Shown here: piece after piece, positions 1,467 to 16,303 of the stretch | How the letters are laid out: each line of letters starts with the position of its first letter | Position numbering within the stretch: position 1 is the stretch's first letter | IMG/VR virus record: IMGVR_UViG_3300005517_000038 | Location: 1 to 27,247 of that record | DNA length: 27,247 bases | Strand: one strand, 5' to 3' | DNA from: a virus | Lineage: Duplodnaviria; Caudoviricetes | The notes under the pieces: generated by a model | What the model was told of the DNA's origin: nothing | What the model saw: the letters and a program-made list of their open reading frames with translations, nothing else | Database searches by the model: none | Made by a program: the position numbers and the translations under genes

Positions 1467-1898
1467 ATGAAATTAAAAGAGTGTAGCATCTGCCACAAGG
1501 AAACAATACTATGGAAGGCAAACCCTAAGGCTTGTAAGGAATGTTGGCTTAAATACAAGGCTTCTGAGACACTATCTCAACCGAAGACATACAATGTATC
1601 CAAAACGAAACAAAGTCCCGCATATCGCATTAAAAGTGTGTCTACGAAGAAGCTATCTGAATTGAATGATTATAGGGTGGTTAGGGATGGGTATTTAGAT
1701 ACTCATAAGGTTTGTGAGCATCCCGAGTGCAGTAATCCTTCTGAGGACTTGCACCACGCTAAGGGAAGGGTAGGTAGTTTGCTCACCGATGTGAGGTACT
1801 TTAGGGCATTGTGTAGGAAATGCCATAGGTGGGTAGAAGAAAACCCCACCGATTCTAAATCAATGGGGTTAAGTTTTAGTAGGCTCGATATAGATTAG
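1467..1898 (+). CDS. HNH-family endonuclease-like protein with N-terminal zinc finger
   Basis: CxxC...CxxC at the N-terminus; 'CEHPEC...DLHHAKGR...ALCRKCHRWVEENP' HNH-like C-terminus. Confidence 0.7.
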   Translation: MKLKECSICHKETILWKANPKACKECWLKYKASETLSQPKTYNVSKTKQSPAYRIKSVSTKKLSELNDYRVVRDGYLDTHKVCEHPECSNPSEDLHHAKGRVGSLLTDVRYFRALCRKCHRWVEENPTDSKSMGLSFSRLDID

Positions 1899-2143
1899 TT
1901 CCAAAGTTCTTCTAGGACTTTCTCTACATCCTCCTTGAGGTCATCAATGTCAGAGCCTACGTTCCGCTCTAGGATACGGAAGGCATTGTTACTTGCTCCC
2001 CGTAGCTTTGCTAGTTTGTCATCTAGCTTACCTGCATCAGCATCTCTGCTCTCCCTCATCTCGAGGACTGCTACCTCTAGGTTATCCTTGAGCAGTTGTG
2101 TTAGCACGTAGGATAGTGCTAGGGCTTTCTCTTTAGCGTTCAT
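1895..2143 (-). CDS. Hypothetical protein (82 aa)
   Basis: ORF in a tightly packed minus-strand cluster; overlaps its neighbour. Confidence 0.7.
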   Translation of the reverse strand: MNAKEKALALSYVLTQLLKDNLEVAVLEMRESRDADAGKLDDKLAKLRGASNNAFRILERNVGSDIDDLKEDVEKVLEELWN

Positions 2144-2369
2144 AGTCCGAAATCTTTTTTAGTAATAATTCTCCTACCTCTAGCCAATAATCGTATCTTC
2201 CACTATCTAGGCTATGTAGCAGGGATTCTTCTGCTCTCCCGATGGCATACTCTTTTGCTATTAGTAGCCCTATAACTAGGTGTGAGCCATTGAATATAAT
2301 CGTATTGAATACCTCTGCTTTCTTGCAGTTTATTGCTTCTAGTTCGTCTGCTTTTTCTTTTGGTGTCAT
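2133..2369 (-). CDS. Hypothetical protein, MTPKEKA...YWxEV type
   Basis: ORF packing; shares motifs with 2377..2598. Confidence 0.7.
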   Translation of the reverse strand: MTPKEKADELEAINCKKAEVFNTIIFNGSHLVIGLLIAKEYAIGRAEESLLHSLDSGRYDYWLEVGELLLKKISDYER

Positions 2370-2376
2370 ATCATTT

Positions 2377-2598
2377 TTATTTTTCGTATTCCCACATTAA
2401 TTCGGTGTAATTATTATCTCTTAAGTTCTCAATAACTTCATCCCAATACTTAACTCTATCCTCACTCTGTGCTTCATCTCTTGCTATAGCTGCACACATC
2501 CAAGCGGATGAAATCGCATTTACATAGGTTGAATTTAGGATTCTGAAATCTTTTGCCATTTGCCAAGATTTTTCTTTTGGTGTTAATTTTTTGTTCAT
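2377..2598 (-). CDS. Hypothetical protein, probable paralog of 2133..2369
   Basis: 'LTPKEKS' and 'YWDEV' motifs; ATGA overlap with the upstream gene. Confidence 0.7.
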   Translation of the reverse strand: MNKKLTPKEKSWQMAKDFRILNSTYVNAISSAWMCAAIARDEAQSEDRVKYWDEVIENLRDNNYTELMWEYEK

Positions 2599-3029
2599 AT
2601 CATTTTCTTAATTAGGTTTACATATTGTTTGTTCTCTGCGTAATTCTCGTGAAGGTATCTAAGGTACGCTCTACGGCTCTTTACTTTGGTGAGTACCTTA
2701 TCCTGCCAGAGTTTGTAGTCAACTACTGACTGCCTCCAAGAGGTATACTCAGCGTGGTTGTATTGCTCCCCGATAGCAGTAGTGCTACGTTGTCTAGGTA
2801 GCTTCATACCGAATAGGTTATGGTTATCTCTAAATACCTTCGAGGTAAAGTGTCCCGTCTCTATCTTGGCTTGAGCCATAACGATATCGGGGTACACTAT
2901 TCCTACCTCGTTCATTGTCTTTAACATATTAGTCGTGGAGAATGGCATCTCTGCTCTCCGTGTGAAAGAAGCACTGCCTACCTCCAAGGAGATAGACAAT
3001 GCTATTAGTGTTAGGGTTATACATTTCAT
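2595..3029 (-). CDS. GH73-like (glucosaminidase/muramidase) peptidoglycan hydrolase with N-terminal hydrophobic/signal segment
   Basis: 'MAQAKIETG' (catalytic Glu), 'NHNLFGMK', 'YTSWRQSVVDY', 'YAENKQY' (YAxxxxY). N-terminus MKCITLTLIALSISL. Confidence 0.8.
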   Translation of the reverse strand: MKCITLTLIALSISLEVGSASFTRRAEMPFSTTNMLKTMNEVGIVYPDIVMAQAKIETGHFTSKVFRDNHNLFGMKLPRQRSTTAIGEQYNHAEYTSWRQSVVDYKLWQDKVLTKVKSRRAYLRYLHENYAENKQYVNLIKKMI

Positions 3030-3253
3030 TAATACTGCATTTGGTGAACATTCAGTTGCAACTTACTAAAGTCGGCAACCATATCAAAGTTATCCAAGAT
3101 GTAATTAACATCTACCTCTTCAGTGTACGGGATAACATCGGTGTCTTGTGTGTTTGTGTAGTACACAATGCAACCATCCTGCTCAAACTGAATGCGTACC
3201 TCGTACTCATTAGTTAGTTCTATTAGTTTGCTTCTATTGTTTCTCATAATCAT
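3029..3253 (-). CDS. Hypothetical protein
   Basis: ORF with TAATG coupling on both sides. Confidence 0.6.
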   Translation of the reverse strand: MIMRNNRSKLIELTNEYEVRIQFEQDGCIVYYTNTQDTDVIPYTEEVDVNYILDNFDMVADFSKLQLNVHQMQY

Positions 3254-3351
3254 TATTTTTTGTTGTTAAAAATTCCGTGAATAATATCTGATAGCATACT
3301 TGCAGTAAAACCGAAAGCAAATACGCATACGATAAAAAATAGTGTTTCCAT
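3253..3351 (-). CDS. Small membrane protein (32 aa, METLFFIVCVFAFGFTASMLSDIIHGIFNNKK); not in ORF track
   Basis: Translated by hand; fills the gap exactly; one hydrophobic helix. Confidence 0.6.
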   Translation of the reverse strand: METLFFIVCVFAFGFTASMLSDIIHGIFNNKK

Positions 3352-3352
3352 A

Positions 3353-3595
3353 TTACTTATTTGTTAGCATTGAGTTCATATTAAGGAATGAGTGTGACCT
3401 ATTAGAGGTCATACCCAAGTCCATTCGGTCGTAGTATTCGTTAACAAAGTCCCAAGCCACTCGGCTACTTATATCAGCCACGTACATCAAGGTACGCACG
3501 GCTACGGGTCGTTTGCTCTCCGAAGATACCATCTGTCTAAACTGCACTATACTCTTAGCATAGGTGAGCAGTTCATTGTATTGTAACTCGTTCAT
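3353..3595 (-). CDS. Hypothetical protein
   Basis: ORF packing, ATGA overlap. Confidence 0.65.
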   Translation of the reverse strand: MNELQYNELLTYAKSIVQFRQMVSSESKRPVAVRTLMYVADISSRVAWDFVNEYYDRMDLGMTSNRSHSFLNMNSMLTNK

Positions 3596-3822
3596 TTCAA
3601 AAGGTCGTTTATCTGCTCATCCATTTCAATATCATTACAAGTTGCTACATACATACCGAAACAAAATGCGGGGTATGTTAGAACGTATAACACATTATCG
3701 TATGGTGTTTTCTCTGCGACATACCTCTTGTACTTATTGTAGTCTTCCTTCAGGGATGAGTCTGCTCTTGACATAAAGAAGCTAAACTCATCTTGTATCT
3801 GCTCTAGGTTATCTCGTTTCAT
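3592..3822 (-). CDS. Hypothetical early protein
   Basis: ORF preceded by the AACCCTTAA motif. Confidence 0.7.
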   Translation of the reverse strand: MKRDNLEQIQDEFSFFMSRADSSLKEDYNKYKRYVAEKTPYDNVLYVLTYPAFCFGMYVATCNDIEMDEQINDLLK

Positions 3823-3840
3823 TGTTATTTGTTTAAGGGT

Positions 3841-4029
3841 TTAAAAGATTCTAATTAATATATTATTTGAATTGATATTCATATCGTTAAATTGCTCGGC
3901 AAATCCTTGCAATGACCATACGAGTCCGTTTTCTTCTGCAATATCTATCCATTGCTCATCGCTTACATTTCCCAAGTTTTCCAATTCGATATTGCTTACA
4001 TCAATACCATATACTCTGATTTCTTCCAT
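3841..4029 (-). CDS. Hypothetical acidic early protein
   Basis: ORF preceded by the AACCCTTAA motif. Confidence 0.7.
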   Translation of the reverse strand: MEEIRVYGIDVSNIELENLGNVSDEQWIDIAEENGLVWSLQGFAEQFNDMNINSNNILIRIF

Positions 4030-4144
4030 TGTTTTATTTGTTTAAGGGTTAAAAATAAATCAAGGCCTCTAACCTATTCGTATGTTTAATAGTTAACATA
4101 TAACCTACATTGTTTCATCGCCACTTATGTTATGGTGAAGAATA

Positions 4145-4312
4145 TTAGCTGACAATTTTAACATTGTAGCCCCATTCTTCGTAGGTCTTTATCCAGTATT
4201 CTAACTCTGCTATCTCAAAATACTTGTTCCAATCTTCACCACTATGGCTAAATTGTACTACGGGCTTCTGCCATCTGCCGAAGGTACCGAATCTAAAATG
4301 TATCTGCTTCAT
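4145..4312 (-). CDS. Hypothetical protein (55 aa, MKQIHFRFGTFGRWQKP...); not in ORF track
   Basis: Translated by hand; ATG lies 1 nt after the stop of 4314..4703. Confidence 0.6.
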   Translation of the reverse strand: MKQIHFRFGTFGRWQKPVVQFSHSGEDWNKYFEIAELEYWIKTYEEWGYNVKIVS

Positions 4313-4313
4313 A

Positions 4314-4703
4314 CTATCCGAATATTACCTCTTTTAAAAAAACCGTCTGAAGTATTACATCAGAGGTAACTGCATCGTCTCGCTCCTCTATCATATCTAC
4401 TAGGTGGCTTAACTCGGTGTTGGCTACACGCTCGTGAACATCTGCTAGAGTGATAATGTTATCCTCTTCGCTCTCAGCATCATATAGGTTCAACTCTCCG
4501 CCATCTCTCAGTATCTGCATAAGCACATCCTCGTAACAGATAGATTCATCTGGTTTAAGTGCCTCTAGGTTAGCCACTGCTTGTTCTCTATCTTTTTTCT
4601 TTTTCTTGATGTAAAGTCCGTAGCCTTGTACATAGTCTAGTCCGTTGCATAATGCGTTGTAAAAATACTCTTCTGATTCTTGTGGTGTTAAAATGATTTT
4701 CAT
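4314..4703 (-). CDS. Hypothetical acidic early protein
   Basis: 129-aa ORF ending 'DAVTSDVILQTVFLKEVIFG'; upstream motif variant. Confidence 0.75.
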   Translation of the reverse strand: MKIILTPQESEEYFYNALCNGLDYVQGYGLYIKKKKKDREQAVANLEALKPDESICYEDVLMQILRDGGELNLYDAESEEDNIITLADVHERVANTELSHLVDMIEERDDAVTSDVILQTVFLKEVIFG

Positions 4704-4719
4704 AATTTAAGGTTTTAAA

Positions 4720-4739
4720 GGGGGTGATTGCTCACCCCC
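4720..4739 (-). repeat. Intergenic GC hairpin A, copy 1 (GGGGGUGA-GCAA-UCACCCCC-UUU), weak terminator-like
   Basis: Perfect 8-bp stem with a GNRA loop on the minus strand; near-identical copy at 5003-5023. Confidence 0.75.
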
Positions 4740-4745
4740 AAGTGA

Positions 4746-4985
4746 TTAATCTTGTTTGTTAAGTTGTTTATCTTCAGCAGTATAATCTATGGCCAACCAT
4801 ATCTGCTCATACGTTGCTTCGTTTGTTAATGCACGATACAATACATCTTGGGCGGTTTCATCATCGCATACAAACTTGTTTTGCACATCTCCTACGCTCC
4901 ATAGGTTATCTACAAAATAGCCATTCTCTCTTAGTATTGATTTGGCCAATTGAATTTCGGTAAATTTAGTTTCTTGTGGTGTCAT
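4746..4985 (-). CDS. Hypothetical early protein
   Basis: ORF bracketed by the two hairpin A copies. Confidence 0.75.
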   Translation of the reverse strand: MTPQETKFTEIQLAKSILRENGYFVDNLWSVGDVQNKFVCDDETAQDVLYRALTNEATYEQIWLAIDYTAEDKQLNKQD

Positions 4986-5002
4986 ATCATTAAGGGTTTA
5001 AA

Positions 5003-5023
5003 GGGGGTGATTTGCTCACCCCC
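5003..5023 (-). repeat. Intergenic GC hairpin A, copy 2
   Basis: GGGGGTGA-N5-TCACCCCC. Confidence 0.75.
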
Positions 5024-5030
5024 ATAGTGA

Positions 5031-5402
5031 TTAAATATAAATTGTCTCCTGCTTTCCGTTATCGTAGTAAGCCTTCTGACCATTGTCTCTAGCTATACGC
5101 TCAGCCTCTTCTCGGGTGGTTACCTTGGTAGATACATCTAAGTATAACTCATCGTTCTCTACCCAAGCCCCGATAAAGTAGCGTTGGTTTGTTAGGCCAC
5201 CGCAGAGGATGTGTGCCTTCTCTTTAATGTAGGATGCAATGTGGTATTGCAAGCCCGTCATCCAATTCTGCTTAAGGATGGTCTCGTGGTCTGCTATGCT
5301 CACCATAAAGCCATCGGTAGGGTTAAGTTGTCCGTTCAGTAGGTTGTAACTTCCACCTCCGTTGTTAAGAATTGATTTTCTGAATTGAATTAAGTTACTC
5401 AT
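5031..5402 (-). CDS. Hypothetical phage protein (GGGSY...GFMVS...IGAW...LYLDVS...GQKAYYD)
   Basis: 123-aa ORF with a motif pattern typical of conserved early phage proteins; function unknown. Confidence 0.75.
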   Translation of the reverse strand: MSNLIQFRKSILNNGGGSYNLLNGQLNPTDGFMVSIADHETILKQNWMTGLQYHIASYIKEKAHILCGGLTNQRYFIGAWVENDELYLDVSTKVTTREEAERIARDNGQKAYYDNGKQETIYI

Positions 5403-5446
5403 AATTTTAGGTATCGGTTGGCCTATACTCCGAAAGGTTTTAGGGG

Positions 5447-5548
5447 TTATTTTTTAAGTGATTTGATAAAGATTGTAATTAATAAGCCGTAGAACAATAC
5501 CACGTTAAGGGCAAAGAATAGGGCTAAAATTGTTTTGATAGTTTCCAT
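5447..5548 (-). CDS. Small single-TM protein (33 aa); not in ORF track
   Basis: METIKTILALFFALNVVLFYGLLITIFIKSLKK, translated by hand. Confidence 0.6.
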   Translation of the reverse strand: METIKTILALFFALNVVLFYGLLITIFIKSLKK

Positions 5549-5552
5549 CGTG

Positions 5553-5699
5553 TTAGTTTTTAAAGGTGTTTTTAGGTTTGGTTTGTTTGCTTGGTTGTTT
5601 CTCTACTTGCTTTGCTCCCCAATCTATTAGGAAAGCAACGGCTAAGATACTAGTTATTACTACAAATGCAAATTCTGAGATTAAAATAAATTCTTTCAT
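5553..5699 (-). CDS. Small single-TM protein (48 aa); not in ORF track
   Basis: MKEFILISEFAFVVITSILAVAFLIDWGAKQ...; doubled AACCC(C)TTAA upstream. Confidence 0.6.
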   Translation of the reverse strand: MKEFILISEFAFVVITSILAVAFLIDWGAKQVEKQPSKQTKPKNTFKN

Positions 5700-5723
5700 T
5701 TTTAAGGGGTTAAGGGTTAATAA

Positions 5724-6014
5724 TTACTCGGCACATAGTGACCAAGACTCTTGTTTGTATAATTCATTTTTAGTTAGACCTAGGTAGCCTAGGATAAAGT
5801 TAGCCAACCTCGTGCGGGTGGTTTCCTTTGTGAGGTCATTAGAGCCTATCTGAGACACTAAGTAGCTAGGTGACATACCTAGTACCCGACTGCAAAACTT
5901 TGCGTCCTGCCCTAGGTAAAACGCTCTGTACGTGCCATCAGATTTTGTTAAGGTCAATGTCCAAGTGTGACCGAAGCCGTAGCTTCCACGTTCGATTTGA
6001 ATTGTTGCTTTCAT
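5724..6014 (-). CDS. Hypothetical early protein
   Basis: 96-aa ORF with upstream motif. Confidence 0.75.
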   Translation of the reverse strand: MKATIQIERGSYGFGHTWTLTLTKSDGTYRAFYLGQDAKFCSRVLGMSPSYLVSQIGSNDLTKETTRTRLANFILGYLGLTKNELYKQESWSLCAE

Positions 6015-6016
6015 TG

Positions 6017-6211
6017 TTACTTGTTTAAGGGTTTGATAGTTAGGTTAAGTTTACTCATTCGATGAGATGTTGTTCTATTGAATTGCTCATCGGTATCGTA
6101 TAGGATACCATTCTCGTAGATGTAGATAGTGCTACCATCTTCTGAGCATAGCACATCTTCTTTGCCGTTAGATAGACTCTCTATCTTTAGTAGCGTTAAG
6201 TCTTTGTTCAT
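6017..6211 (-). CDS. Hypothetical early protein
   Basis: ORF with upstream motif. Confidence 0.65.
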   Translation of the reverse strand: MNKDLTLLKIESLSNGKEDVLCSEDGSTIYIYENGILYDTDEQFNRTTSHRMSKLNLTIKPLNK

Positions 6212-6229
6212 AATTGTTAAGGGGTTTAA

Positions 6230-6255
6230 GTTAAGGGGAGCAGTTACGCTCCCCG
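6230..6255 (-). repeat. Intergenic hairpin B, copy 1 (26-nt exact repeat; 7-bp stem GGGGAGC/GCTCCCC)
   Basis: GTTAAGGGGAGCAGTTACGCTCCCCG, identical at 6989-7014. Confidence 0.85.
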
Positions 6256-6264
6256 TGTTAATGA

Positions 6265-6486
6265 TTAAACTAATTGTCTATGGCCTTCTGCATATTCTAT
6301 TTCGACAATGTGGCCTTCTTGTCTCTTCCACTCTACCCATTCTTTTAGGTCTTGGGCGAATACAAAGTTTCGTTTACTGCCATCATCCTCAATAATCCAA
6401 AAAGCACGCTTGCCATAATCTTCATTACCATAGTAATCTTGTCTAAGTTTGTAGTGCTCTTGGTAGTTGTCAATTGTTGTTTCCAT
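6265..6486 (-). CDS. Hypothetical early protein
   Basis: ORF with doubled upstream motif. Confidence 0.7.
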   Translation of the reverse strand: METTIDNYQEHYKLRQDYYGNEDYGKRAFWIIEDDGSKRNFVFAQDLKEWVEWKRQEGHIVEIEYAEGHRQLV

Positions 6487-6507
6487 TGTTTTAAGGGGTT
6501 TTAAGGG

Positions 6508-6681
6508 TTAAAAAAATAGTGCTATTGTGTTCTGCTCATCGTCTGATACCTCGATGCTTAGGCAGTCCTTAGAAGCTAGGATAAGTTTAGCTACCTCGAT
6601 AGCATCTTGCCTAGAGTAATTCGTTGCGTGGGTGTATACATCTCCATCGATGTCGGTCACCACAATGTTGTGTACTTTCAT
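6508..6681 (-). CDS. Hypothetical protein (57 aa, MKVHNIVVTDIDGDVY...); not in ORF track
   Basis: Translated by hand; AACCCTTAA upstream; directly downstream of hammerhead 2. Confidence 0.65.
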   Translation of the reverse strand: MKVHNIVVTDIDGDVYTHATNYSRQDAIEVAKLILASKDCLSIEVSDDEQNTIALFF

Positions 6682-6697
6682 AATTGTTAAGGGTTTT

Positions 6698-6747
6698 GGT
6701 TAATGCGCCCGTAGGCGTTTCGGATACTCAATCCTCGTCAGTTAACC
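6698..6747 (-). ncRNA. Hammerhead ribozyme, type I, variant cleavage triplet GCA
   Basis: Minus strand: GGUUAA CUGACGA GGAU-UGAGU-AUCC GAA A-CGCC-UACG-GGCG-C A UUAACC. All three stems and the CUGANGA/GAAA core are present; position 16.1 is C instead of U. Confidence 0.8.
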
Positions 6748-6973
6748 TATAGTAATCAGATTCGTAGAATTGTCTGTCCGAATCTTTGGCTTCTGCCTTG
6801 CAAGATTTCATCTCAGAGCGAAAGTCGAAAGCTAGGCTTCTAATTCCATACTCTGTTTCATCACCAACAAGCCCCCAATCTTGGGCTTCGGTTTCGTCTA
6901 GTGGCTCTATGTCCCAATTGATTAAAAAGTGGTTGAACATAGCTAATGCTTCTTGAAATTGTGTATTTTCCAT
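6728..6973 (-). CDS. Hypothetical acidic early protein whose 3' end overlaps hammerhead 2
   Basis: 81-aa ORF with upstream motif; last codons RLTDED* encode the ribozyme's 5' half. Confidence 0.7.
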   Translation of the reverse strand: MENTQFQEALAMFNHFLINWDIEPLDETEAQDWGLVGDETEYGIRSLAFDFRSEMKSCKAEAKDSDRQFYESDYYRLTDED

Positions 6974-6988
6974 AATTTTAAGGGTTTG

Positions 6989-7014
6989 GTTAAGGGGAGC
7001 AGTTACGCTCCCCG
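6989..7014 (-). repeat. Intergenic hairpin B, copy 2
   Basis: Exact copy of 6230-6255. Confidence 0.85.
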
Positions 7015-7022
7015 ATTAATTG

Positions 7023-7253
7023 TTAAAACATTTTAAATAGTAATTTACCATCTTTCCACCACTCGTGTATAAGTGGGTCATCATCTGTACCCAAATATAT
7101 CTCTACTTGGTCGTATCCTTTTAGAGATAATCTTTCGGCTTCTTTCCTTGCTGATTTTAATACTACTCGATTATACTCCTTATGAACGTACCATTGTCCG
7201 TTTGGTACTTCTTCAGCAGATTTTAATCGATAACTAATTGTTAGCTTTTCCAT
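7023..7253 (-). CDS. Hypothetical early protein
   Basis: ORF with doubled upstream motif. Confidence 0.7.
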   Translation of the reverse strand: MEKLTISYRLKSAEEVPNGQWYVHKEYNRVVLKSARKEAERLSLKGYDQVEIYLGTDDDPLIHEWWKDGKLLFKMF

Positions 7254-7298
7254 TTTGTTAAGGGTTTTAAGTTAAGGGGTTTAAGTTAATAAATTGAT

Positions 7299-7358
7299 TA
7301 CGCTGTGTAGCGTAGAACCTACTTGCTGAATCGAACAGCAATACAACCATTGTAGGTT
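7299..7358 (-). ncRNA. tRNA-like mini-element (acceptor-like stem plus T-arm) followed by a small hairpin
   Basis: AACCUAC-AAUGGUUGUA-UUGCUG-UUCGAUU-CAGCAA-GUAGGUU, then UACGCU-ACAC-AGCGUA. Canonical T-loop; no anticodon arm or CCA. Confidence 0.6.
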
Positions 7359-7365
7359 AGGGGCA

Positions 7366-7713
7366 TTAAACTTCACCAGTTAATCTTTTAGACTCTTCTC
7401 TGATGGCTGATATTAGTGCCTTTCTAATTATACTAACATTGTACTTCAACTCAGCAAGGCCGTTATCGGCAAACTCATCGGTCTTGGTGATGCAGTATCT
7501 CTGCTTCTTAATGTAGTCATACTTGTTAGGCTTAACCGATTCGATGGTCACAAACTTGCCGTTAACTCTAATTGGCTTGATGTCTATAACATATGGCCAA
7601 GTGCCACCAGCATAGGTCGTAACGTATATAAACTCATCCGTTGCGATTTTGATTAGGTCGTTAACTTCGTTGATTCTCTCGGCCAAGGCCTTTGGTAATT
7701 TGATAGTTTTCAT
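7366..7713 (-). CDS. Hypothetical protein, first ORF of the early transcript
   Basis: 115-aa ORF directly downstream of hammerhead 1. Confidence 0.75.
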   Translation of the reverse strand: MKTIKLPKALAERINEVNDLIKIATDEFIYVTTYAGGTWPYVIDIKPIRVNGKFVTIESVKPNKYDYIKKQRYCITKTDEFADNGLAELKYNVSIIRKALISAIREESKRLTGEV

Positions 7714-7726
7714 TTTGTAAGGGTTT

Positions 7727-7782
7727 ATCGTTTCGGTGTGTACTGCTCACCTCATCAGTATAGGAACTTACCTATATACGAC
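7727..7782 (-). ncRNA. Hammerhead ribozyme, type III, GUA cleavage site
   Basis: Minus strand: GUCGU A UAUAGG-UAAGUU-CCUAUA CUGAUGA GGUG-AGCAGUACA-CACC GAA ACGAU. Perfect core and stems I-III. Confidence 0.93.
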
Positions 7783-7783
7783 T

Positions 7784-7798
7784 AATATGTCAAAGAAC
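7784..7798 (-). promoter_or_regulatory. boxA-like antitermination element
   Basis: GTTCTTTGACATATT matches the rrn/nut boxA consensus GYTCTTTAANA at 10 of 11 positions and is preceded by a hairpin. Confidence 0.55.
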
Positions 7799-7991
7799 GT
7801 TTACATCTACTCGTGCAGTCCAGAGGTCGTATACTCGATACCTTTACTGGAAGCGTAGATACTGGTAGCATCTACTCGGACATTTCGAACACCAGTCTTC
7901 ACTGGGAGCACGCCATCTCGGAGTGCTAATTTCTTTAGTATTTCATTGCTAAGATTCTTAGCATTTTGGGAAGCATCGCACTTCCGACCCC

Positions 7992-8023
7992 CAAATATGG
8001 GAATAAGGTTTTACATACACAAT
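7992..8023 (-). promoter_or_regulatory. Probable early promoter (Bacteroidota sigmaA type)
   Basis: ATTG-N20-CATATTTG, one mismatch in each element versus TTTG/TAnnTTTG; A/T tracts upstream. Confidence 0.55.
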
Positions 8024-8099
8024 AGCTAGGTGAAAATAATTTTGGCTAAAAATAAAAAATAGCCTCACGATAGTTTAAACGTGGTTTTTCAATGAAAAC

Positions 8100-8890
8100 T
8101 TAACAATTTCTTAACATTGGAGTATGCTGAAGCATAGCAGATGTGCAGGGTATTTATAGTGTATATGCACCAATGCTCACCGAATAGTGAACCCTATATA
8201 CTACTACTAGGATAAGAGAGCAGACAAGGTGCAGGGCGAAGCCTCGGGGGGTAAGGACTAACTACACGGAATACCCACCCACGGGGGTATTTACCCTAGG
8301 TATCTATAGCCCAATATGTTACACCTGCGAAAACACTACCGCTAAGGCCGTTTTATACCCCTAAATTGCGTCTAAGCGATTATCTCACCTACGGCAATAT
8401 AACGAGTCCACTAAGGGGGGTTATTTCCTTAGAGAGCCTCTAAATGCCCTTAAACGGGAAATGCCAAAAACCCCCTCAGAATGCGTTTAAAAGGGGTTTG
8501 CTAGACCTTAGTGTATTTAGGGATGAAATGTGAGCTAACCACCCAAGGGGAATAAAGTGCATTTAAAGGTACGTGAGTACACACTCTCCACCACGTGGAG
8601 ACAAGCACCTTAGTGTACATAGTGTTTATGTAGAATGATTCTAAATAAGTGTATTGGTCAGAGCAGACTAGCCAAGGTACTATGTAATGCAAGGTACTGC
8701 CACCCGAATCGGAGCAGATGGTATCCATATGGCTATGGATGGTACTAGGTGATGCAAGGTACTCTCGAAGCCATTCTATTTCTAGCCATCCCGAGGTGTG
8801 CAGGTAGGCTTAGTGTACAATGTACACTATCTAGGGGGGCGGGGTGTGGGATATCGGGTTATCTCGGGGTCGGCGGTCGGTTGTGTGTGG
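8100..8890. other. Non-coding repeat/palindrome-rich region; candidate genome terminus or packaging region
   Basis: No credible ORF; CTTAGTGTA x3, CAAGGTACT x3, palindrome at 8811-8829, G-tracts at 8834-8869. Confidence 0.45.
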
Positions 8891-8894
8891 GCGG

Positions 8895-9260
8895 TTATCC
8901 CCTCACTCCACAATCACGAACTAAATCAACCACAGGCACCAGAACGCCTTTAGATGTATTGTTATCCCCTCCGAGCACATCACGTTTAGTATTTAGGTAT
9001 TTACGAGCTATAGACTTGAGCTCAGTTGTGGTTTTGAGGATTATTGTTTCCCCTACTACTATGGCGTAGTAGTCTGCTTGGGTTGTGGCTATGCCAGATG
9101 GTTTGTTTCTTGAGCTATACTCAATGAATACGTTACCTGTCTTTAGTGTGAGCAGGTCTGTCTTAACTTCTATCCTCTTATGGTGGAGGATTTCTGATAG
9201 CTTTTGTTCACTTAGTACCCCTAGCTCTAGGTCGTATTTAAAATCACTGTTATAGTTCAT
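8895..9260 (-). CDS. PD-(D/E)XK nuclease-like conserved phage protein
   Basis: 'IEVKTD...TGNVFIEY.SR.KPSGIATTQADYY' motif. Confidence 0.65.
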   Translation of the reverse strand: MNYNSDFKYDLELGVLSEQKLSEILHHKRIEVKTDLLTLKTGNVFIEYSSRNKPSGIATTQADYYAIVVGETIILKTTTELKSIARKYLNTKRDVLGGDNNTSKGVLVPVVDLVRDCGVRG

Positions 9261-9969
9261 ATAGGAAATCTCTTGCTAACTTGTCCTCTATATCGTTATG
9301 GTTGTGTACTTCTCTCCACTCATAGTCGTTCTTTATATGAGCATCTGCTCTGCCTCTATCGCATTTGTCTTTGAACTCCTGAATTGTTCTGGAGTAGTAG
9401 TGGTTTAGTTGGGCTATGTTATCGTCTCCCTGTGGGTTGTATGGTCCTACGACTTTCCTTCCGTTAGTGTCTGTAGCTGGGACATCGTATGGGTTATGTA
9501 CATCCATACGTGAGCTATTGTTAGTTAGGTTTAAGATACACTTTATATGCTCATTAACGCCTTTCTGTCTTTTAGTGAAACGTCTTAAGTAAGAGTAATC
9601 GTCTGTTACTTCGGTGAGCTCATTATCTCCAAACATAACCCAGTTAATAGCTACTGCTTCTTTACCTTCATAATCTTCTAGAAACTCCCTTATGGTGGGG
9701 GATTTTTTTAGGACTAGGTATTCATCTACATCAAAGAATGCTGCCCAGGTGAATGCTTTCCTGTAGTGAGATAGGAAGTATGCGTATGCATCTCTTTGCT
9801 TATTCTCTCCTGGGTATGGGATAATGCTTACCTGACGATGTGGGTATTCAAATTCCCAGTTGTTTGCATATATGAAGATATGGTCAAATCCTAGCTTTAG
9901 GTGATATTCTATCCACTCCTCTATATAGTGGTCTTCATTCTTAGCTATGCAGACGAGGGCTGTTGTCAT
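9250..9969 (-). CDS. GT-A fold glycosyltransferase (GT92/GT2-like)
   Basis: 'CIAKNEDHYIEEWIEYHLKLGFDHIFIY', 'WAAFFDVDEYL' (DxD), 'AQLNHY'. Confidence 0.85.
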   Translation of the reverse strand: MTTALVCIAKNEDHYIEEWIEYHLKLGFDHIFIYANNWEFEYPHRQVSIIPYPGENKQRDAYAYFLSHYRKAFTWAAFFDVDEYLVLKKSPTIREFLEDYEGKEAVAINWVMFGDNELTEVTDDYSYLRRFTKRQKGVNEHIKCILNLTNNSSRMDVHNPYDVPATDTNGRKVVGPYNPQGDDNIAQLNHYYSRTIQEFKDKCDRGRADAHIKNDYEWREVHNHNDIEDKLARDFLYEL

Positions 9970-10154
9970 TACAGTTCGAATTTCTTTTCTATCTTATTGT
10001 ACTCTTCTTCTGTTATATCTACAAGGGTGTACTCGCTCTGTCTGATGAGCTCACATATCTCTACACGCTGTGGGAAGGATACGGTGTCATCGAAGAGCAC
10101 AGCACCTTCTACCCCATCGCTATTATTCATCACCTTCAGGTATCTCGTTATCAT
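9969..10154 (-). CDS. Hypothetical protein
   Basis: ORF coupled to the GT gene by TAATG. Confidence 0.55.
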   Translation of the reverse strand: MITRYLKVMNNSDGVEGAVLFDDTVSFPQRVEICELIRQSEYTLVDITEEEYNKIEKKFEL

Positions 10155-10284
10155 TGGGCTTTATTCTAATGGTTACTGTTTCATCCTCTAATGTGAGGTA
10201 AAGGCTTGCGAGCTCCTCATAGGAGAAAATGAATGACTTCCCCTCTATGTAGATGATAATGTCTTTAATTGCTTCTATCTTCAT
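10123..10284 (-). CDS. Hypothetical protein (53 aa); not in ORF track
   Basis: Translated by hand; ATGA coupling. Confidence 0.55.
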   Translation of the reverse strand: MKIEAIKDIIIYIEGKSFIFSYEELASLYLTLEDETVTIRIKPNDNEIPEGDE

Positions 10285-10445
10285 ATTCCGTATGTGTCTC
10301 TAATGTACTTGCGAGCTTCTCCATAGCTTGAGAATATTCTAAGGTAGTCAAACTCTCCTGGGCTTGATATGGTATAGGAAATCTTTATAATCTCCCCATC
10401 TAAGTCAAGCTCTGTTTTTTCTGTTATTGTTATAAGGTCTTTCAT
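10281..10445 (-). CDS. Hypothetical protein (54 aa); not in ORF track
   Basis: Translated by hand; ATGA coupling on both sides. Confidence 0.55.
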   Translation of the reverse strand: MKDLITITEKTELDLDGEIIKISYTISSPGEFDYLRIFSSYGEARKYIRDTYGI

Positions 10446-10603
10446 AGTATTTTAATTAGTATAATGCCAAGGAATGCAGCAACTAAGGTGAGCATAGCTG
10501 CTGTGAAATAAAAAAATGCACGTGGTAGTGGCTCCCTGTGCTCTCTGAAGATGTGGTCATACACCTCAGATGATGAGTTCCTGTTTTTACTCTTCTTTTT
10601 CAT
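10442..10603 (-). CDS. Small protein with C-terminal TM helix (53 aa); not in ORF track
   Basis: MKKKSKN...AFFYFTAAMLTLVAAFLGIILIKIL; ATGA coupling. Confidence 0.55.
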   Translation of the reverse strand: MKKKSKNRNSSSEVYDHIFREHREPLPRAFFYFTAAMLTLVAAFLGIILIKIL

Positions 10604-10737
10604 CGTTTTTGAATTACTTTTCTTAGTGCAGCTCTAATCTCTTTAAGCTCTTTCTCTTTTACTTGTTTCATCTTCATTAAAGCATCAATCTGCTTCTGTC
10701 TTGATATTTCGTGTGCTAGTGCTTCCAATACTCTCAT
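10600..10737 (-). CDS. Small coiled-coil protein (45 aa); not in ORF track
   Basis: Translated by hand; fills the gap after the lysozyme gene. Confidence 0.5.
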   Translation of the reverse strand: MRVLEALAHEISRQKQIDALMKMKQVKEKELKEIRAALRKVIQKR

Positions 10738-10743
10738 TGTTTT

Positions 10744-11193
10744 TTATTTAATATATAGTGCGTACTCTCTTTTTCTTCTGTTTAGAAGGATTGGCTTACC
10801 ACCAGCGTTCTTCCACATTAGGAATGCTGCTTCTATGTCAGCTGCTTTTGGGTCCTTGTTCACTCGTTTAATCAACGTAGACTTCTTTAATGCATTAGTT
10901 CCAATATTAAATGCTAAACTAACAAGGGAGTCAAACTGGTTTTGGTTGATGTCATCTCTTGTGCAGGTATATACGCACATCTCGTAGTGTTTTAACACAT
11001 TCTCAAATAGGACATAAGCTCTTTCTCTTGTTATAGGACTATCTGTCATCTTAACCTTGGTCCCGTCTTCGTAATACGTAGAACCAATCCCTATAGTAGG
11101 TACCCCTGCACTGCACTTGTAAGGCTTAAGGACCACTCCTTCTTCCCTTGCGATGAAGTCCATACCACTCTTAGATACTTTTTTAATTTCCAT
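10744..11193 (-). CDS. GH24 phage lysozyme (endolysin)
   Basis: 'EGVVLKPYKCSAGVPTIGIGST' (E-x8-C-x5-T triad), 'NQNQFDSLVSLAFNIG', 'LLNRRKREYALY'. Confidence 0.92.
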   Translation of the reverse strand: MEIKKVSKSGMDFIAREEGVVLKPYKCSAGVPTIGIGSTYYEDGTKVKMTDSPITRERAYVLFENVLKHYEMCVYTCTRDDINQNQFDSLVSLAFNIGTNALKKSTLIKRVNKDPKAADIEAAFLMWKNAGGKPILLNRRKREYALYIK

Positions 11194-11199
11194 ATTATT

Positions 11200-11424
11200 T
11201 TATTTCTTGTTGATTAATACAGTCACCCTAAATACAAATGACAGGCTTGATATTATAGTTGTGATGGTTATTAGTGGTAGTGACCATATAAACATCACTA
11301 ATATTACAAGTATGTCAGCAACTTTTGTTGGTGCATCGTTTACAATAAACAGTAGCGGCTTTACTGAGTAGGTTAATCCAAAGTCAAGTACAGCCTTCTC
11401 AAACTTATTCGCTCTCTTCCTCAT
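11200..11424 (-). CDS. Small hydrophobic membrane protein, holin candidate
   Basis: Long hydrophobic stretch with basic termini, immediately upstream of the lysozyme. Confidence 0.4.
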   Translation of the reverse strand: MRKRANKFEKAVLDFGLTYSVKPLLFIVNDAPTKVADILVILVMFIWSLPLITITTIISSLSFVFRVTVLINKK

Positions 11425-11599
11425 CGCTTATTTGGTCTCTTAGATGCATAATTGATAATACGTGGGAGAGCATATTAGCTGTGCATCGCTCTCTTAAGCC
11501 CTCAGTCTCGCTTGAGTCTCTTTCGGCTCTTAATCTTTGGACCTCATCATCCAAGATTTTAATGGCATTTAGTATGCTTTCTTTATAGTTCTTTTCCAT
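11405..11599 (-). CDS. Hypothetical protein
   Basis: ORF packing. Confidence 0.6.
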   Translation of the reverse strand: MEKNYKESILNAIKILDDEVQRLRAERDSSETEGLRERCTANMLSHVLSIMHLRDQISDEEESE

Positions 11600-11600
11600 A

Positions 11601-11879
11601 TTAGTCTGTTTTCTTCCAGTTTAACGTGCATTGGCGAACTATTTCGCTTTCATATGCTTCAAATGGGCTTAATGTTAACATTACTTTATCGTCTTTTATT
11701 ATCTGCTCAGGGAACCTGTCAAGGGTATATAGTGGTTCCTTTAGTAGCTTCTTGTATTCATCACGAGTAGATACATTAGATACTATAAAGAACCCTTCAC
11801 CATTGGTAAATGTGTCCCCAACATTGTATTTACAAACTACGTCTTTCAGCTTTTTACTAGCAGCCACCATAATTAGCAA
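11601..11879 (-). CDS. Hypothetical protein (start probably the ATG near 11870)
   Basis: ORF packing. Confidence 0.6.
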   Translation of the reverse strand: MLIMVAASKKLKDVVCKYNVGDTFTNGEGFFIVSNVSTRDEYKKLLKEPLYTLDRFPEQIIKDDKVMLTLSPFEAYESEIVRQCTLNWKKTD

Positions 11880-12060
11880 GTTTTTCTAACCTTTCGGCAA
11901 GTTCAACACAATTTTCCTTTACTAAATACCTCTTACCACCATCCATTACTATAAAGGATAGTGAATCACTGCCAGTGTAAGATTCAATCTGTGCCACATA
12001 TTTTGGGTTGATTGCAATATCTAATCCTGCTTCGTCTTTTGTTTTGTAGAATTGTAACAT
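11857..12060 (-). CDS. FlbD/SwrD-like small protein
   Basis: 'IAINPKYVAQIE...SFIVMDGGKRYLVKENCVELAERL' fits the FlbD pattern (lN.d.I..iE...dTvI.l.nGkky.VkEs.eev). Confidence 0.55.
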   Translation of the reverse strand: MLQFYKTKDEAGLDIAINPKYVAQIESYTGSDSLSFIVMDGGKRYLVKENCVELAERLEKLANYGGC

Positions 12061-12064
12061 AACG

Positions 12065-12112
12065 CTAAGGTAAGGACTTATTTTGTTATATCAAAATTTA
12101 TTTATACTTTTG
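12065..12112. promoter_or_regulatory. Overlapping divergent Bacteroidota-type promoters at the strand switch
   Basis: Plus: TTTG(12082-85)-N19-TACTTTTG(12105-12). Minus: TTTG(12095-92)-N19-TACCTTAG(12072-65). Confidence 0.65.
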
Positions 12113-12136
12113 TTTAATTAATAATCATTATAAATA

Positions 12137-12409
12137 ATGAACATCAAAAAAAATACGGAGTATATCCTTCAGCATCCATATACAAAGAAGGCTATAGAAG
12201 AATATGTGCAGGGGGATACAAAGATGCTGGAGCAACTTATCTTCGAGATTCAATTTCATACCTTTGATAAAACAGCTTTGCTGTGTTCGCAAGTATATGG
12301 ACTGAATAAATGGAACAACACTTGCGTTATCAAGGACTTAATAAGAAACGTAGAGCCACCTAATAATTTATCTATATCACTTTCTATTCCAAAGAAGAGT
12401 AGTAAGTAA
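12137..12409 (+). CDS. Hypothetical protein
   Basis: ORF downstream of the promoter. Confidence 0.6.
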   Translation: MNIKKNTEYILQHPYTKKAIEEYVQGDTKMLEQLIFEIQFHTFDKTALLCSQVYGLNKWNNTCVIKDLIRNVEPPNNLSISLSIPKKSSK

Positions 12410-12481
12410 AAAACTGAATTATTTATTGTTTATCTTTGCATATCAATTGATATTTATTTATTAACTCAAACATTTTATAAA

Positions 12482-13063
12482 ATGGCAAAATTATCTTTAA
12501 ATCCATCTAAATTAGAGATGGTTAAAAAAACATTAAGCGTTGCTGCTCCAACTGGTGGCACAATGGGTGGTGCTACAAAAGCTACACAAGGAACAAGTGG
12601 ACCTATATCGGATGAGGGTGTACAAATGAAAATGGGTGGACCTCTAAATGAAGTTGTAGTATCAAGCATAAGAAAACCTAAATTTAACGAAAATCAGTTA
12701 GATGATGTTGTTAGAGTTGGTGGTGGATATGTTTCCAAGCAAGCTTTAGAAGATTATATGCCTTATCTTGAAAAACAATTAGCTGGAACTCGTTTTGAAA
12801 AAGACTTAAATGAAATTAAATCATTATTTAATAGCAAGCCATTAGTATATTCAGAAGATATAGAAGGAAAAGATAAGTATGATGTTCAATCAAACATTCA
12901 GAATGTTTATGGTGGTATTCGTGGAACAAGTTATGGTAGTGAAGAAAAAAATTACATTTTAGACTTGTTACGAAAAAAGGGAGTTAAATTAGCAGAAAAT
13001 TTAGAAGAGGAAAGAAGTAGAACAAACCCTAATAAACCAAGAAATATTAGCTTGTTAAAATAA
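12482..13063 (+). CDS. Hypothetical protein
   Basis: 193-aa ORF; TATCTTTG at 12431-38 upstream and a terminator downstream. Confidence 0.75.
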   Translation: MAKLSLNPSKLEMVKKTLSVAAPTGGTMGGATKATQGTSGPISDEGVQMKMGGPLNEVVVSSIRKPKFNENQLDDVVRVGGGYVSKQALEDYMPYLEKQLAGTRFEKDLNEIKSLFNSKPLVYSEDIEGKDKYDVQSNIQNVYGGIRGTSYGSEEKNYILDLLRKKGVKLAENLEEERSRTNPNKPRNISLLK

Positions 13064-13085
13064 TTTTTACTATTAATACTAAGAG

Positions 13086-13113
13086 AAGCTCACCAAAACG
13101 GTGGGCTTTTTTT
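13086..13113 (+). terminator. Intrinsic terminator
   Basis: AAGCTCACC-AAAAC-GGTGGGCTT followed by a T-tract. Confidence 0.8.
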
Positions 13114-13148
13114 ATGTAATTTTGTATTATAATCTTTAAGAAATTAAT

Positions 13149-13661
13149 ATGGCACAGAAACCAGACCCTAAAAAATTTGCTACAATTGGCAAATTAAAAG
13201 AAATTATTGCTAAGAACAATAAAGATAAGGATAATATTGAGCAAAGAAGAAAAGCTTATGGAACCGATTTATCTGTAATGAGTCCAGAAGATGCTAAAGA
13301 CCAAATTCGTTTAGACCAAATTGAGAGCCAAAACTTTCGTTATGGTAATTTAATTAAAAAAGCAGATAAAGAGGCAGATGCTAAAGCTAAAAATGTAAAA
13401 AAAGTTCCAGCACAAAGAGCTCTTGATATTGCTGACTCTTTAACGGTATCTGCAAGTCGTAAAGAAGGTAGTGCTCAATCATTAAGTAAATATGGATTTA
13501 ATGTTAAAGATAGGTTGAAATCAGCTAAAGCGGATGAAACTAAAGCTAATTTAATTTTTGATAGATTGAATAAAGCTGGCTCAAACTTAGAATCTTATTA
13601 TCGTACATTATATAATAATAGATACTATAATAGTAAATATATAGAAAAAAATAAAAAATAA
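13149..13661 (+). CDS. Hypothetical Lys-rich protein
   Basis: 170-aa ORF; TAATTTTG at 13117-24 upstream. Confidence 0.7.
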   Translation: MAQKPDPKKFATIGKLKEIIAKNNKDKDNIEQRRKAYGTDLSVMSPEDAKDQIRLDQIESQNFRYGNLIKKADKEADAKAKNVKKVPAQRALDIADSLTVSASRKEGSAQSLSKYGFNVKDRLKSAKADETKANLIFDRLNKAGSNLESYYRTLYNNRYYNSKYIEKNKK

Positions 13662-13804
13662 TGGCAAAGGCTAAAACCCAATCAGTCGTTAAGAAAATAG
13701 AGAAGCATAAGGTTTCAAGACCTGGTGTGCACTCTAAGAAGAAGGCGAGCAAATTAAAAGGCTCTAAGAATTACCTTAAGAAATATAATAGTCAAGGAAA
13801 ATAA
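13661..13804 (+). CDS. Small very basic protein (47 aa, ...RPGVHSK...KNYLKKYNSQGK); not in ORF track
   Basis: Translated by hand; TAATG coupling. Confidence 0.7.
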   Translation: MAKAKTQSVVKKIEKHKVSRPGVHSKKKASKLKGSKNYLKKYNSQGK

Positions 13805-13805
13805 T

Positions 13806-13997
13806 ATGGCAACTGCAAAAACACCAAAGAGTAAGGTTAATGCTGCTGGTAACTATACAAAACCAGGTATGCGTAAAACAATATTTGAAAAAGTAAAAGC
13901 TGGTAGTAAGGGTGGAAACCCTGGTCAGTGGAGTGCAAGAAAAGCACAGTTAATGGCTAAGGAATACAAGGCTAAAGGTGGTGGATATAAAAACTAA
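13806..13997 (+). CDS. Small basic protein (GSKGGNPGQWSARKAQ family; probably N-half of DUF5872-like)
   Basis: Recognisable conserved motif; family name from memory. Confidence 0.7.
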   Translation: MATAKTPKSKVNAAGNYTKPGMRKTIFEKVKAGSKGGNPGQWSARKAQLMAKEYKAKGGGYKN

Positions 13998-14002
13998 TCA
14001 CT

Positions 14003-14272
14003 ATGGCATTAGCTAAATCACAACAAAGTCTTAAAAGCTGGGGCGAGCAGAAGTGGATGACTTCTGGAACAGCAGCCAATAAAAAGAAAGGTTCCTCTAA
14101 AGAAGTTAAATCTAAAGGAACTAAAAGATATTTACCTGAAGCGGCTTGGAGTTCTTTGTCAGCTGGTGAAAAAGCTGCAACTAACAAAGCTAAAGCTAAG
14201 GGTAATGCGAGTGGAAAACAATTTGTTAAACAGCCTAAAAGCATAGCTAAGAAGGCATCTAAATTCAGGTAA
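14003..14272 (+). CDS. Small basic protein (QSLKSW...RYLPEAAW...KQFV; probably C-half of DUF5872-like)
   Basis: Recognisable conserved motif; family name from memory. Confidence 0.7.
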   Translation: MALAKSQQSLKSWGEQKWMTSGTAANKKKGSSKEVKSKGTKRYLPEAAWSSLSAGEKAATNKAKAKGNASGKQFVKQPKSIAKKASKFR

Positions 14273-14273
14273 T

Positions 14274-14417
14274 ATGAAAACTATGAAGACAATGAAAGTT
14301 AAAACTATGAAAGTTACCAAGGGTAAATCTTTTCCAGACTTAAACAAGGATGGTAAGGTTACTAAAGCTGATATCCTAAAAGGTAAAGGTGTAATTGGTA
14401 AAATGAAGAAGAAGTAA
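14274..14417 (+). CDS. Small basic protein with a single EF-hand/dockerin-like loop (47 aa); not in ORF track
   Basis: 'FPDLNKDGKVTKADIL' (DxNxDG); TAATG coupling to the next gene. Confidence 0.7.
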   Translation: MKTMKTMKVKTMKVTKGKSFPDLNKDGKVTKADILKGKGVIGKMKKK

Positions 14418-15046
14418 TGACTTTAAACATCGGCATAGACTCGTTCAAGTGTTACGTAAGACTTAGTCATTTAACAAAGAATGATGAGGATGCCGATGTT
14501 TACCACAATGCTTATGCTTTCGGTATTCAATCTATTGATGGAAAGATTTTAACTTTTCACATAATGACTGATTACGGAATGCTTAGAAGTAGAGTTCCTA
14601 TCAGTGAGATATTTTTAAAGGAACCAACTAAAGATATACCAAGCCACTACAAGCAGCTTTGGGATTGCTTCTCAGAGAATGTTACATTTACAAAGTTTGA
14701 TTACCTTGTAGATAAGAGATGCCAGGTTGTTCTAAAAAATGGTGAGAAGGTTTGGTGTAAGTATATGTTTACTATTGACTGGTTTAACAATCCTTACTCA
14801 GACGAACCATCAGATTATAAGTGTGGGCATATTTTAGTTTCTGATGATGGATACTTACTATGTCAGCCTAACAATAGAATATATTGGAAAGATTGCAACT
14901 TTGTAACAAAAGAGTTCCCAATCAATCCCAAAGACTTTAAGGTTGATAATAAACTTGAATCAGTTGAATCTTACTCAGATAGATGGGTAAGTAGCGATAG
15001 TGATTCTTTTTACTACGAAATAAAAGAAAATGAAGAAGACGACTAA
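14417..15046 (+). CDS. Conserved phage hypothetical protein
   Basis: 'QLWDCFS', 'YMFTIDW', 'YSDEPSDYKCGH', 'QPNNRIYWKD' motifs; function unknown. Confidence 0.75.
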   Translation: MTLNIGIDSFKCYVRLSHLTKNDEDADVYHNAYAFGIQSIDGKILTFHIMTDYGMLRSRVPISEIFLKEPTKDIPSHYKQLWDCFSENVTFTKFDYLVDKRCQVVLKNGEKVWCKYMFTIDWFNNPYSDEPSDYKCGHILVSDDGYLLCQPNNRIYWKDCNFVTKEFPINPKDFKVDNKLESVESYSDRWVSSDSDSFYYEIKENEEDD

Positions 15047-15311: not shown

Positions 15312-15319
15312 TGTGGGCT

Positions 15320-15650: not shown

Positions 15651-15654
15651 GTTA

Positions 15655-15730: not shown

Positions 15731-15749
15731 GATATTGTTAAATAATTAA

Positions 15750-16040: not shown

Positions 16041-16042
16041 AG

Positions 16043-16270: not shown

Positions 16271-16303
16271 CGCAACCCCTTTCTCTTTGTGTTCAAACTA
16301 AGA

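Follow-up and report, generated by a model that had tools for sequence, protein, structure and literature searches.

The window analysed in the present study, a stretch of 27,247 nucleotides, is a 27-kb virus record with terminase, portal and structural protein genes on the plus strand. The terminase and portal have relatives (~24-30% identity) in phages of Flavobacteriaceae (Elemovirus, Pachyviridae and Pervagoviridae), which points to a likely host in the Bacteroidota. On the minus strand, a promoter-like site followed by ~20 small ORFs suggests an early operon, and the label "first early gene", which a previous sequence-only reading had given to the ORF starting at 7713, depends on this layout. 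The predicted Bacteroidota host-type promoter (7992..8026; -7 element at 7992-7999, upstream element at 8014-8026) was assigned using what we take to be the consensus of that phylum; it resembles the promoter upstream of a Flavobacteriaceae 16S gene (L493), is identical in the homologous locus L501, and was not listed in a sigma-70 scan of the window. Downstream on the same strand lies a non-coding leader of short hairpins (7799..7986; fold z -3.14, with 0/200 shuffles as stable). The first of these hairpins (7969..7985) occupies a boxB-like position and has a five-base GCGAN loop, which by direct stem count recurs on a 5-8 bp stem with differing letters in 9/10 homologous loci. The leader ends in a stretch directly 5' of boxA (7799..7812) that is nearly invariant in the window, L501, L604, L573 and L509; a 25-base pattern for the sequence before boxA gave no match in viral contigs. 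The distance from promoter to boxA varies among homologues from 57 to about 200 nt. A boxA-like 15-mer (7784..7798) and a hammerhead ribozyme (7727..7782) follow, and then an A/C-rich translation initiation region (7714..7726; repeat families D1, D3, D7 and D9), of a kind that also precedes other small ORFs. The first ORF after the ribozyme (7366..7713, 115 aa) had no PHROGs or Pfam match and one weak relative only, outside a leader context, and the rest of the predicted early operon (1895..7365), delineated from the ORF list, PHROGs and sequence, comprises ~20 small co-oriented ORFs. No DNA relative of 7300-8500 was found among GenBank phages. In the RNA run X1, near-identical contigs were observed at 7360-7744 and 7061-7297, covering the first two ORFs, and 21 records were observed over 8000-27247; none crossed 7777/7776 or lay over the leader, a gap that is uninformative, as such contigs show neither strand nor ends.

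Several other features of this region were also observed. A glucosaminidase-family muralytic gene lies within the predicted early operon (2595-3029, minus strand), separate from the endolysin at 10744-11193. The stretch 5' of the promoter (8000-8900) is GC-richer and largely non-coding, and a 75-aa ORF in it (8501-8728, minus strand), for which no family match was obtained, may not be a gene. In addition, a 15-base motif upstream of the early promoter (~8633-8648, minus strand) is common to L501, L604 and L573 and is possibly linked to a genome end or packaging site.

The element at 7727..7782 (minus strand) has the complete anatomy of a type III hammerhead. Stem III's 5' strand (7782-7778) pairs with 7731-7727 (5 bp, counting U16.1-A15.1) and its outer end is open; the GUA triplet (7779-7777; NUH, H not G) ends in N17, A7777; stem I (7776-7771/7764-7759, 6 bp) is closed by the loop UAAGUU; and stem II (7751-7748/7738-7735, 4 bp, with G10.1-C11.1) carries the loop AGCAGUACA. 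Both core segments, CUGAUGA (7758-7752) and GAAA (7734-7731), are intact. In other words, the features that define the class are all present, namely a CUGANGA plus GAAA core, an NUH triplet with U16.1-A15.1, loops on stems I and II, and an open stem III. Cleavage is predicted between 7777 and 7776, 63 nt 5' of the ATG at 7713, and the sequence-only reading, which had named the same ribozyme at the same coordinates and the same cut, agrees with these results. A structural descriptor matched once in the whole 27-kb window, at this element, and dinucleotide shuffles gave stems of at least 6, 4 and 4 bp in 0/500 cases and any loose match in 3/500. No second hammerhead or tRNA was found in the window.

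The Rfam search that had been suggested as a check gave a divided answer. The hammerhead model RF00008 (clan CL00010) shares with the window the full core, the NUH triplet and three stems with stem III open, and it was matched with an E value of 0.0027; however, the score of 27.3 bits lies below the gathering cut-off of 48.5 bits, and no Rfam model reached its gathering score anywhere in the window. The window also differs from that family in being a phage leader rather than a viroid or satellite context. Because other phage hammerheads also fall under the RF00008 cut-off (24-36 bits), the low score reflects the training set of the model more than the element itself. The hammerhead is the minimum-energy structure of a 71-nt piece, the stability of which is not unusual (z -0.40); in longer pieces, upstream pairing is predicted to displace stem III (probability of the stem 0.00-0.13). 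The first base of loop I is U and the last base of loop II is A in the window and in its closest homologues, L501 and L573, as pointed out before for the window; these letters may make the tertiary contact of fast hammerheads.

The conservation of the element was examined in a metagenome scan of 40/64 parts, which returned 118 loci. The strict type III test was passed by 6 of the 118 (5 distinct, one of them the window's own record, L557), and 12 passed when a mismatch, a bulge or an extra base beside the core was allowed. Nine Bacteroidota-type sequences (the window, L501, L573, L509, L497, L508, L530, L579 and L601) were aligned, and L604, L613 and L015 were excluded as duplicates. Stems I and III are paired in all nine sequences (100%), with two-sided changes in 5/6 and 3/5 pairs, respectively, in a set biased to structure since the homologues were chosen by patterns requiring these stems. 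The covariation score was reached by 0/500 shuffles and the number of changed pairs by 72/500. Stem II is 76% paired in the alignment, a value that partly reflects misalignment and core variants. The gene after the ribozyme is exchangeable between relatives, and swaps while promoter, boxA and ribozyme persist: in L501 the 115-aa ORF of the window is the second gene, L604 has its ribozyme in common with L501 and a different first gene, and L573 and L509 also have other first genes.

An alternative is that the match arose by chance, or that the element is a relic which has lost its cleavage activity. The score under the Rfam gathering threshold, the lack of special stability and the weakness of stem III in context are consistent with this possibility. 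However, all core bases are intact, the anatomy was reached by none of the 500 shuffles, two-sided changes occur in close homologues, and control phage hammerheads have a weak predicted stem III just as often (probability below 0.5 in 32/45). A chance or relic origin is therefore regarded as extremely improbable. By anatomy and conservation, the element is a genuine type III hammerhead whose cleavage is predicted.

Variant forms were also observed. Many of the hammerheads linked to boxA have core variants (L497, L508, L530, L579, L601, L563, L141 and L128), in which the first pair of stem II is mismatched (U-U or A-A) or A9 is followed by an additional base. In L494, in over 60 gut loci nearly identical to it, and also in L625, a boxA-like element precedes a hammerhead-like core with stems III and I and no canonical stem II; loci of the L494 type fail both descriptors and lie in a mobile-element-like context.

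The sequence-only reading had overlooked the element immediately upstream. The 15-mer at 7798-7784 (minus strand) resembles the boxA of rRNA operons, and this identification was checked in genomes. With one position left open, the boxA pattern occurs in 52/81 Flavobacteriaceae genomes, compared with 2 for a reversed control; of 16 places retrieved, 13 are within 16S-23S rRNA spacers, and additional copies were found upstream of 16S genes. The window agrees with the commonest Flavobacteriaceae form in 14 of 15 letters, although, of 4 genome places inspected for its exact spelling, only 1 was within an rRNA spacer, and the exact 14-mer gave no match in 5 genomes. The first 14 columns are invariant across the nine homologues. 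A rhizobial form was found in 23/61 Rhizobiaceae genomes and in 0 controls, upstream of 16S in 9/10 loci; a 16-mer from Alphaproteobacteria was found in 2 of 5 genomes, in neither case adjoining rRNA. Among 21 Flavobacteriaceae genomes taken as proxy hosts, all 21 have a NusB gene. These results suggest that the 15-mer is likely a boxA of the rrn type and a putative NusB-S10 site. From the end of its 9-base core to the predicted cut is a distance of 11 nt, and the ATG at 7713 lies 70 nt from boxA. The resemblance to the rrn leader (boxB-boxA-boxC) thus extends over both the promoter and the 15-mer, which are like those of Flavobacteriaceae rRNA operons, whereas behind the boxA of the window come a ribozyme and protein genes in place of rRNA.

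The Rfam motif DUF2693 (RF02956) was considered in the same connection. Its consensus opens with the same boxA-like letters as the window; however, 7717-7798 (minus strand) is rejected as a member (16 bits, E 2.6, cut-off 81.3), the remainder being unmatched. The main text of PMC5737381 makes no mention of DUF2693; the motif may itself be a phage boxA leader, given how its consensus starts.

To determine how widely the pair of boxA and hammerhead occurs, viral contigs were scanned completely for a boxA core, a gap and a hammerhead core, a first viral scan (4/119 loci passing) having been judged too loose. A true type III hammerhead was present in 11/30 loci, or 13 with variants, and in 0/27 loci when boxA was reversed (Fisher p 0.0004, or 0.0009 without L134, probably a chance hairpin; some of the loci are relatives and hence not independent). 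The distance from the boxA core to the cut is 10-15 nt in all strict matches, comprising 10-11 nt in Bacteroidota and 12-15 nt in the others; two loose matches have 9 and 19 nt. The non-Bacteroidota pairs are GC-rich and have genome copies in Caulobacter, Rhizobium and Shinella records, and a tree with no well-supported branch was used for host names only. In the cultured rhizobial phages RHEph01 and RHEph21 (Autographiviridae), the pair lies 500-700 nt from the start of the record. A terminase gene lies just upstream in 6 of the 11 viral loci; the remaining non-Bacteroidota viral loci are probably T7-like, judging from this terminase and from the placement in RHEph01 and RHEph21. A scan of GTDB gave 2/120 strict and 3/120 loose matches, two of which are identical in sequence to viral matches.

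A second set of controls was obtained from phage hammerheads sampled irrespective of boxA (4/64 parts, 122 loci, 45 type III hammerheads). An exact boxA within 25 nt was found in 0/45 and a boxA with one mismatch in 1/45, while an ATG lay within 40 nt in 42/45; a boxA is therefore not needed to explain a hammerhead before a gene. Among 80 loci sharing the gene at 8895-9260, 3 have a type III hammerhead, none behind boxA and all after a gene and a small hairpin. The pair is thus a real but minor subset of a common pre-gene arrangement. A hairpin lies just upstream in 29 of the 45 control hammerheads. Hairpins of the same kind were noticed between the early ORFs of the window, as two pairs of near-identical small GC hairpins (6994-7013, 6235-6254, ~5007-5024 and 4722-4740, minus strand), each followed by an A/C-rich initiation region and without a U tract; these may be cassettes without a ribozyme.

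Hammerheads in phage genomes have been described previously. In the available part of the report of Perreault et al. 2011 (PMC3088659), hammerheads flanking single genes of prophages are active in vitro and in E. coli, the HHphage of haloviruses HF1/HF2 lies 13 nt before the first ORF of the early transcript, and the role proposed is the cutting of long phage transcripts. The element of the window is likewise a ribozyme that closely precedes a start codon, in a probable early region; it differs in being a single copy directly behind a boxA-like element, and boxA is not mentioned in that part of the report. An engineered hammerhead described in the accessible text of PMC10250234 is placed at the 3' end of 16S and not behind boxA. 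No paper on a tight pairing of boxA and hammerhead in phages was found in a search of mostly open-access papers. Hammerheads before phage genes are already known; less ordinary is that the ribozyme keeps a constant place behind boxA in two phage groups that are not related, paralleling boxA and R0.3 of T7.

The order of promoter, boxA, processing site and first gene is the same in the early leader of T7 and T3 (A1-A3, boxA, R0.3, gene 0.3). In T7, promoter A3 lies at 750, a boxA-consensus 11-mer at 813-823 and gene 0.3 at 925, with a long hairpin between the 11-mer and the gene, and in T7M this hairpin, which begins 30 nt after the same 11-mer and precedes gene 0.3, is annotated as the RNase III site R0.3. 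We take the 11-mer to be a boxA from its identity with the E. coli consensus; the T7 records consulted carry no boxA annotation. In RHEph01 and RHEph21, which belong to the same family as T7, the hammerhead occupies the position of R0.3 in the T7 group. In contrast to T7M, where the R0.3 stem starts 30 nt after boxA, the RNA of the window would cut itself, at a distance of 10-15 nt across pairs. Membership of the window element in the R0.3 type was rejected, as only short stems and no long imperfect duplex lie between boxA and the ATG; it is an analogue by position. The lambda PL leader (nutL, RNase III site, N) and suhB also place boxA upstream of a gene within the range of translational repression. 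The window differs from lambda in its rrn-like order (hairpin, then boxA) and in processing by a ribozyme, and no N-like gene or lambda-type boxB was identified in it.

The two elements are separable, and their link is not obligatory, as relatives carry either alone. Among five GenBank relatives of the window phage, MW202828 and phi19:3 have the promoter and boxA with no adjoining hammerhead, Gundel_1 has the promoter and a one-mismatch boxA with no adjoining hammerhead, elemoA_7-9A has a hammerhead in the leader but no boxA, and phi38:1 has neither; in Atu_ph02, neither was found within 900 nt of the matching promoter. A long imperfect hairpin lies immediately 3' of boxA in MW202828 (L655, 43604, plus strand) and is a candidate RNase III site in the hammerhead slot. 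Further sub-threshold hammerhead matches lie between early genes in RHEph01 (L648; 658-715, 2078-2148 and 2544-2605) and in L126 (4007-4075), where T7-group phages have more RNase III sites such as R0.5. Unannotated hammerheads were also found in the cultured phage elemoA_7-9A (L666 and L669; 19083-19139 and ~17317-17341, minus strand) and in phi19:3 (L667; 21783-21827, minus strand), a group whose hosts are Flavobacterium and Cellulophaga, and these are usable for in vivo tests.

The reading offered previously was an ordinary leader hammerhead acting through its end. Such a ribozyme would strip a long leader and leave a uniform 5'-OH hairpin end, and boxA would be its neighbour because both share the first leader and little space, with no functional link. 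The control hammerheads, which so often precede an ATG and never with an exact boxA, are consistent with this explanation, as are the relatives with one element alone and the prophage hammerheads that flank single genes and cleave in vitro and in vivo, according to the part of PMC3088659 available. RNase E/G was found in 21/21 of the proxy-host genomes, whereas RNase J passed its cut-off in 0/21, a nuclease set that would also suit such an end. However, two unrelated groups of phages keep the spacing at 10-15 nt although the upstream leader varies from 57 to about 200 nt, and hammerheads were found in 11 of the 30 viral loci against none with boxA reversed. An ordinary leader hammerhead is possible, although rather unlikely as the whole explanation. 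The previous interpretation was correct in identity, coordinates and cut site, and it had missed the boxA-like element, the promoter and the recurrence of the pair; these change the likely reason for cutting at that spot.

Herein, we propose that the hammerhead is a self-contained stand-in for the RNase III site behind boxA, cutting the leader off the message of the first gene, a proposal to which we give about an even chance. It is built on the anatomy of the element, its conservation, its recurrence, the fixed spacing and the position equivalent to R0.3. First, host RNA polymerase would initiate near 7986, as the promoter-like site suggests. Second, NusB-S10 of the host and its partners would load at boxA and, by analogy with E. 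coli, raise the processivity of the polymerase across ~6 kb of small foreign genes. The Nus complex loops RNA in other systems and could here block translation of the first gene, with the ATG at 7713 within range at 70 nt. Third, after 7727 has been transcribed, the hammerhead, with its intact core and conserved stems, is predicted to cleave at 7777/7776. BoxA and complex would then part from the message: the Nus complex would retain boxA with the 11 bases behind it, and the coding RNA, set free, would begin with a 5'-OH stem I hairpin, be open to translation and serve poorly as a substrate for RNase E/G.

A hammerhead cut leaves a 5'-OH, and an RNase III cut leaves a 5'-phosphate. RNase III cleavage reportedly relieves the repression of lambda N. 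In E. coli suhB, boxA represses translation even with 100 nt inserted, the whole Nus complex is needed, and an RNA loop accounts for the repression, as it does for lambda N, according to the available part of PMC5725501. The same text states that Nus factors promote termination at suhB and are dispensable against Rho at rRNA, and because of this the benefit of boxA to the phage is uncertain. A difficulty for the proposed stand-in is that the linker after boxA, which NusA and SuhB contact in the rRNA complex of E. coli (PMC8632103, in the part available), would here be part of stem III. The hairpin-protected 5'-OH end of the sequence-only reading stands in part: in the predicted 3' product, the first base already belongs to the stem I hairpin, but a 5'-OH is not always protective. 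RNase E prefers a 5'-monophosphate, and RNase J1 can attack a 5'-OH end, degrading glmS mRNA, as described in the available text of PMC3997798. In a host with RNase E/G and without RNase J, protection by the 5'-OH end is plausible.

Two further possibilities bear on what boxA might do beside the cut. First, a protein bound at boxA might gate the ribozyme, turning it on by removing a competing hairpin or delivering a strand of stem III, or off by covering it, and so couple the early genes to the supply of Nus factors. In the context 7720-7800, forcing boxA to be single-stranded raised the predicted probability of stem III from 0.06 to 0.77, and stem III's 5' strand falls within the stretch contacted by NusA and SuhB in E. 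coli, according to the part of PMC8632103 available. However, with 40 nt of upstream sequence the probability rises only from 0.00 to 0.15, and the mean over 23 boxA-hammerhead loci is 0.37 free and 0.43 masked. The switch was suggested by one short fold and is unsupported across loci, where masking raised the probability by more than 0.2 in 3/23, compared with 6/45 controls; such gating is regarded as very improbable. Second, the released leader of ~210 nt, ending in boxA, might act as a free RNA that titrates NusB-S10 and damps host rRNA synthesis, or as another small RNA. The strong fold of the leader (z -3.14), the conserved GCGAN-loop hairpin and the position of boxA, which the cut leaves very near the 3' end of this RNA, are consistent with this role, whereas the length and content of the leader vary widely, down to ~50 nt in L508, L579 and the rhizobial phages, and a single-stranded 3' tail of boxA would be exposed to exonucleases. 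An acting leader RNA thus seems improbable.

If the hammerhead does stand in for the RNase III site, a broader proposal may be considered, which we hold tentatively and at somewhat less than an even chance. The boxA and a hammerhead cutting 10-15 nt behind it would form a two-part cassette through which unrelated phages make use of the host's rRNA antitermination complex before cutting their mRNA loose from it. The Nus ring would be kept on an 11-nt stub, the first gene would escape repression, and no host RNase III would be required. The cassette would be a natural replacement of the lambda and T7 step, reached independently in Bacteroidota phages and in alphaproteobacterial Autographiviridae.

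Most phage hammerheads have no assigned job; in the present case a specific candidate role can be proposed, which is testable in the cultured phages RHEph01 and RHEph21 and in reporters. Should the link with boxA fail, the element would be one more ordinary phage leader hammerhead. If the link is true, the pair would offer a ready-made part, a boxA plus an insulator, for Bacteroidota and rhizobia, and a natural test of whether the Nus antitermination complex stays on the polymerase once its tether has been cut 11 nt behind boxA. Moreover, a ribozyme and a protein nuclease would then be interchangeable parts of one regulatory layout.
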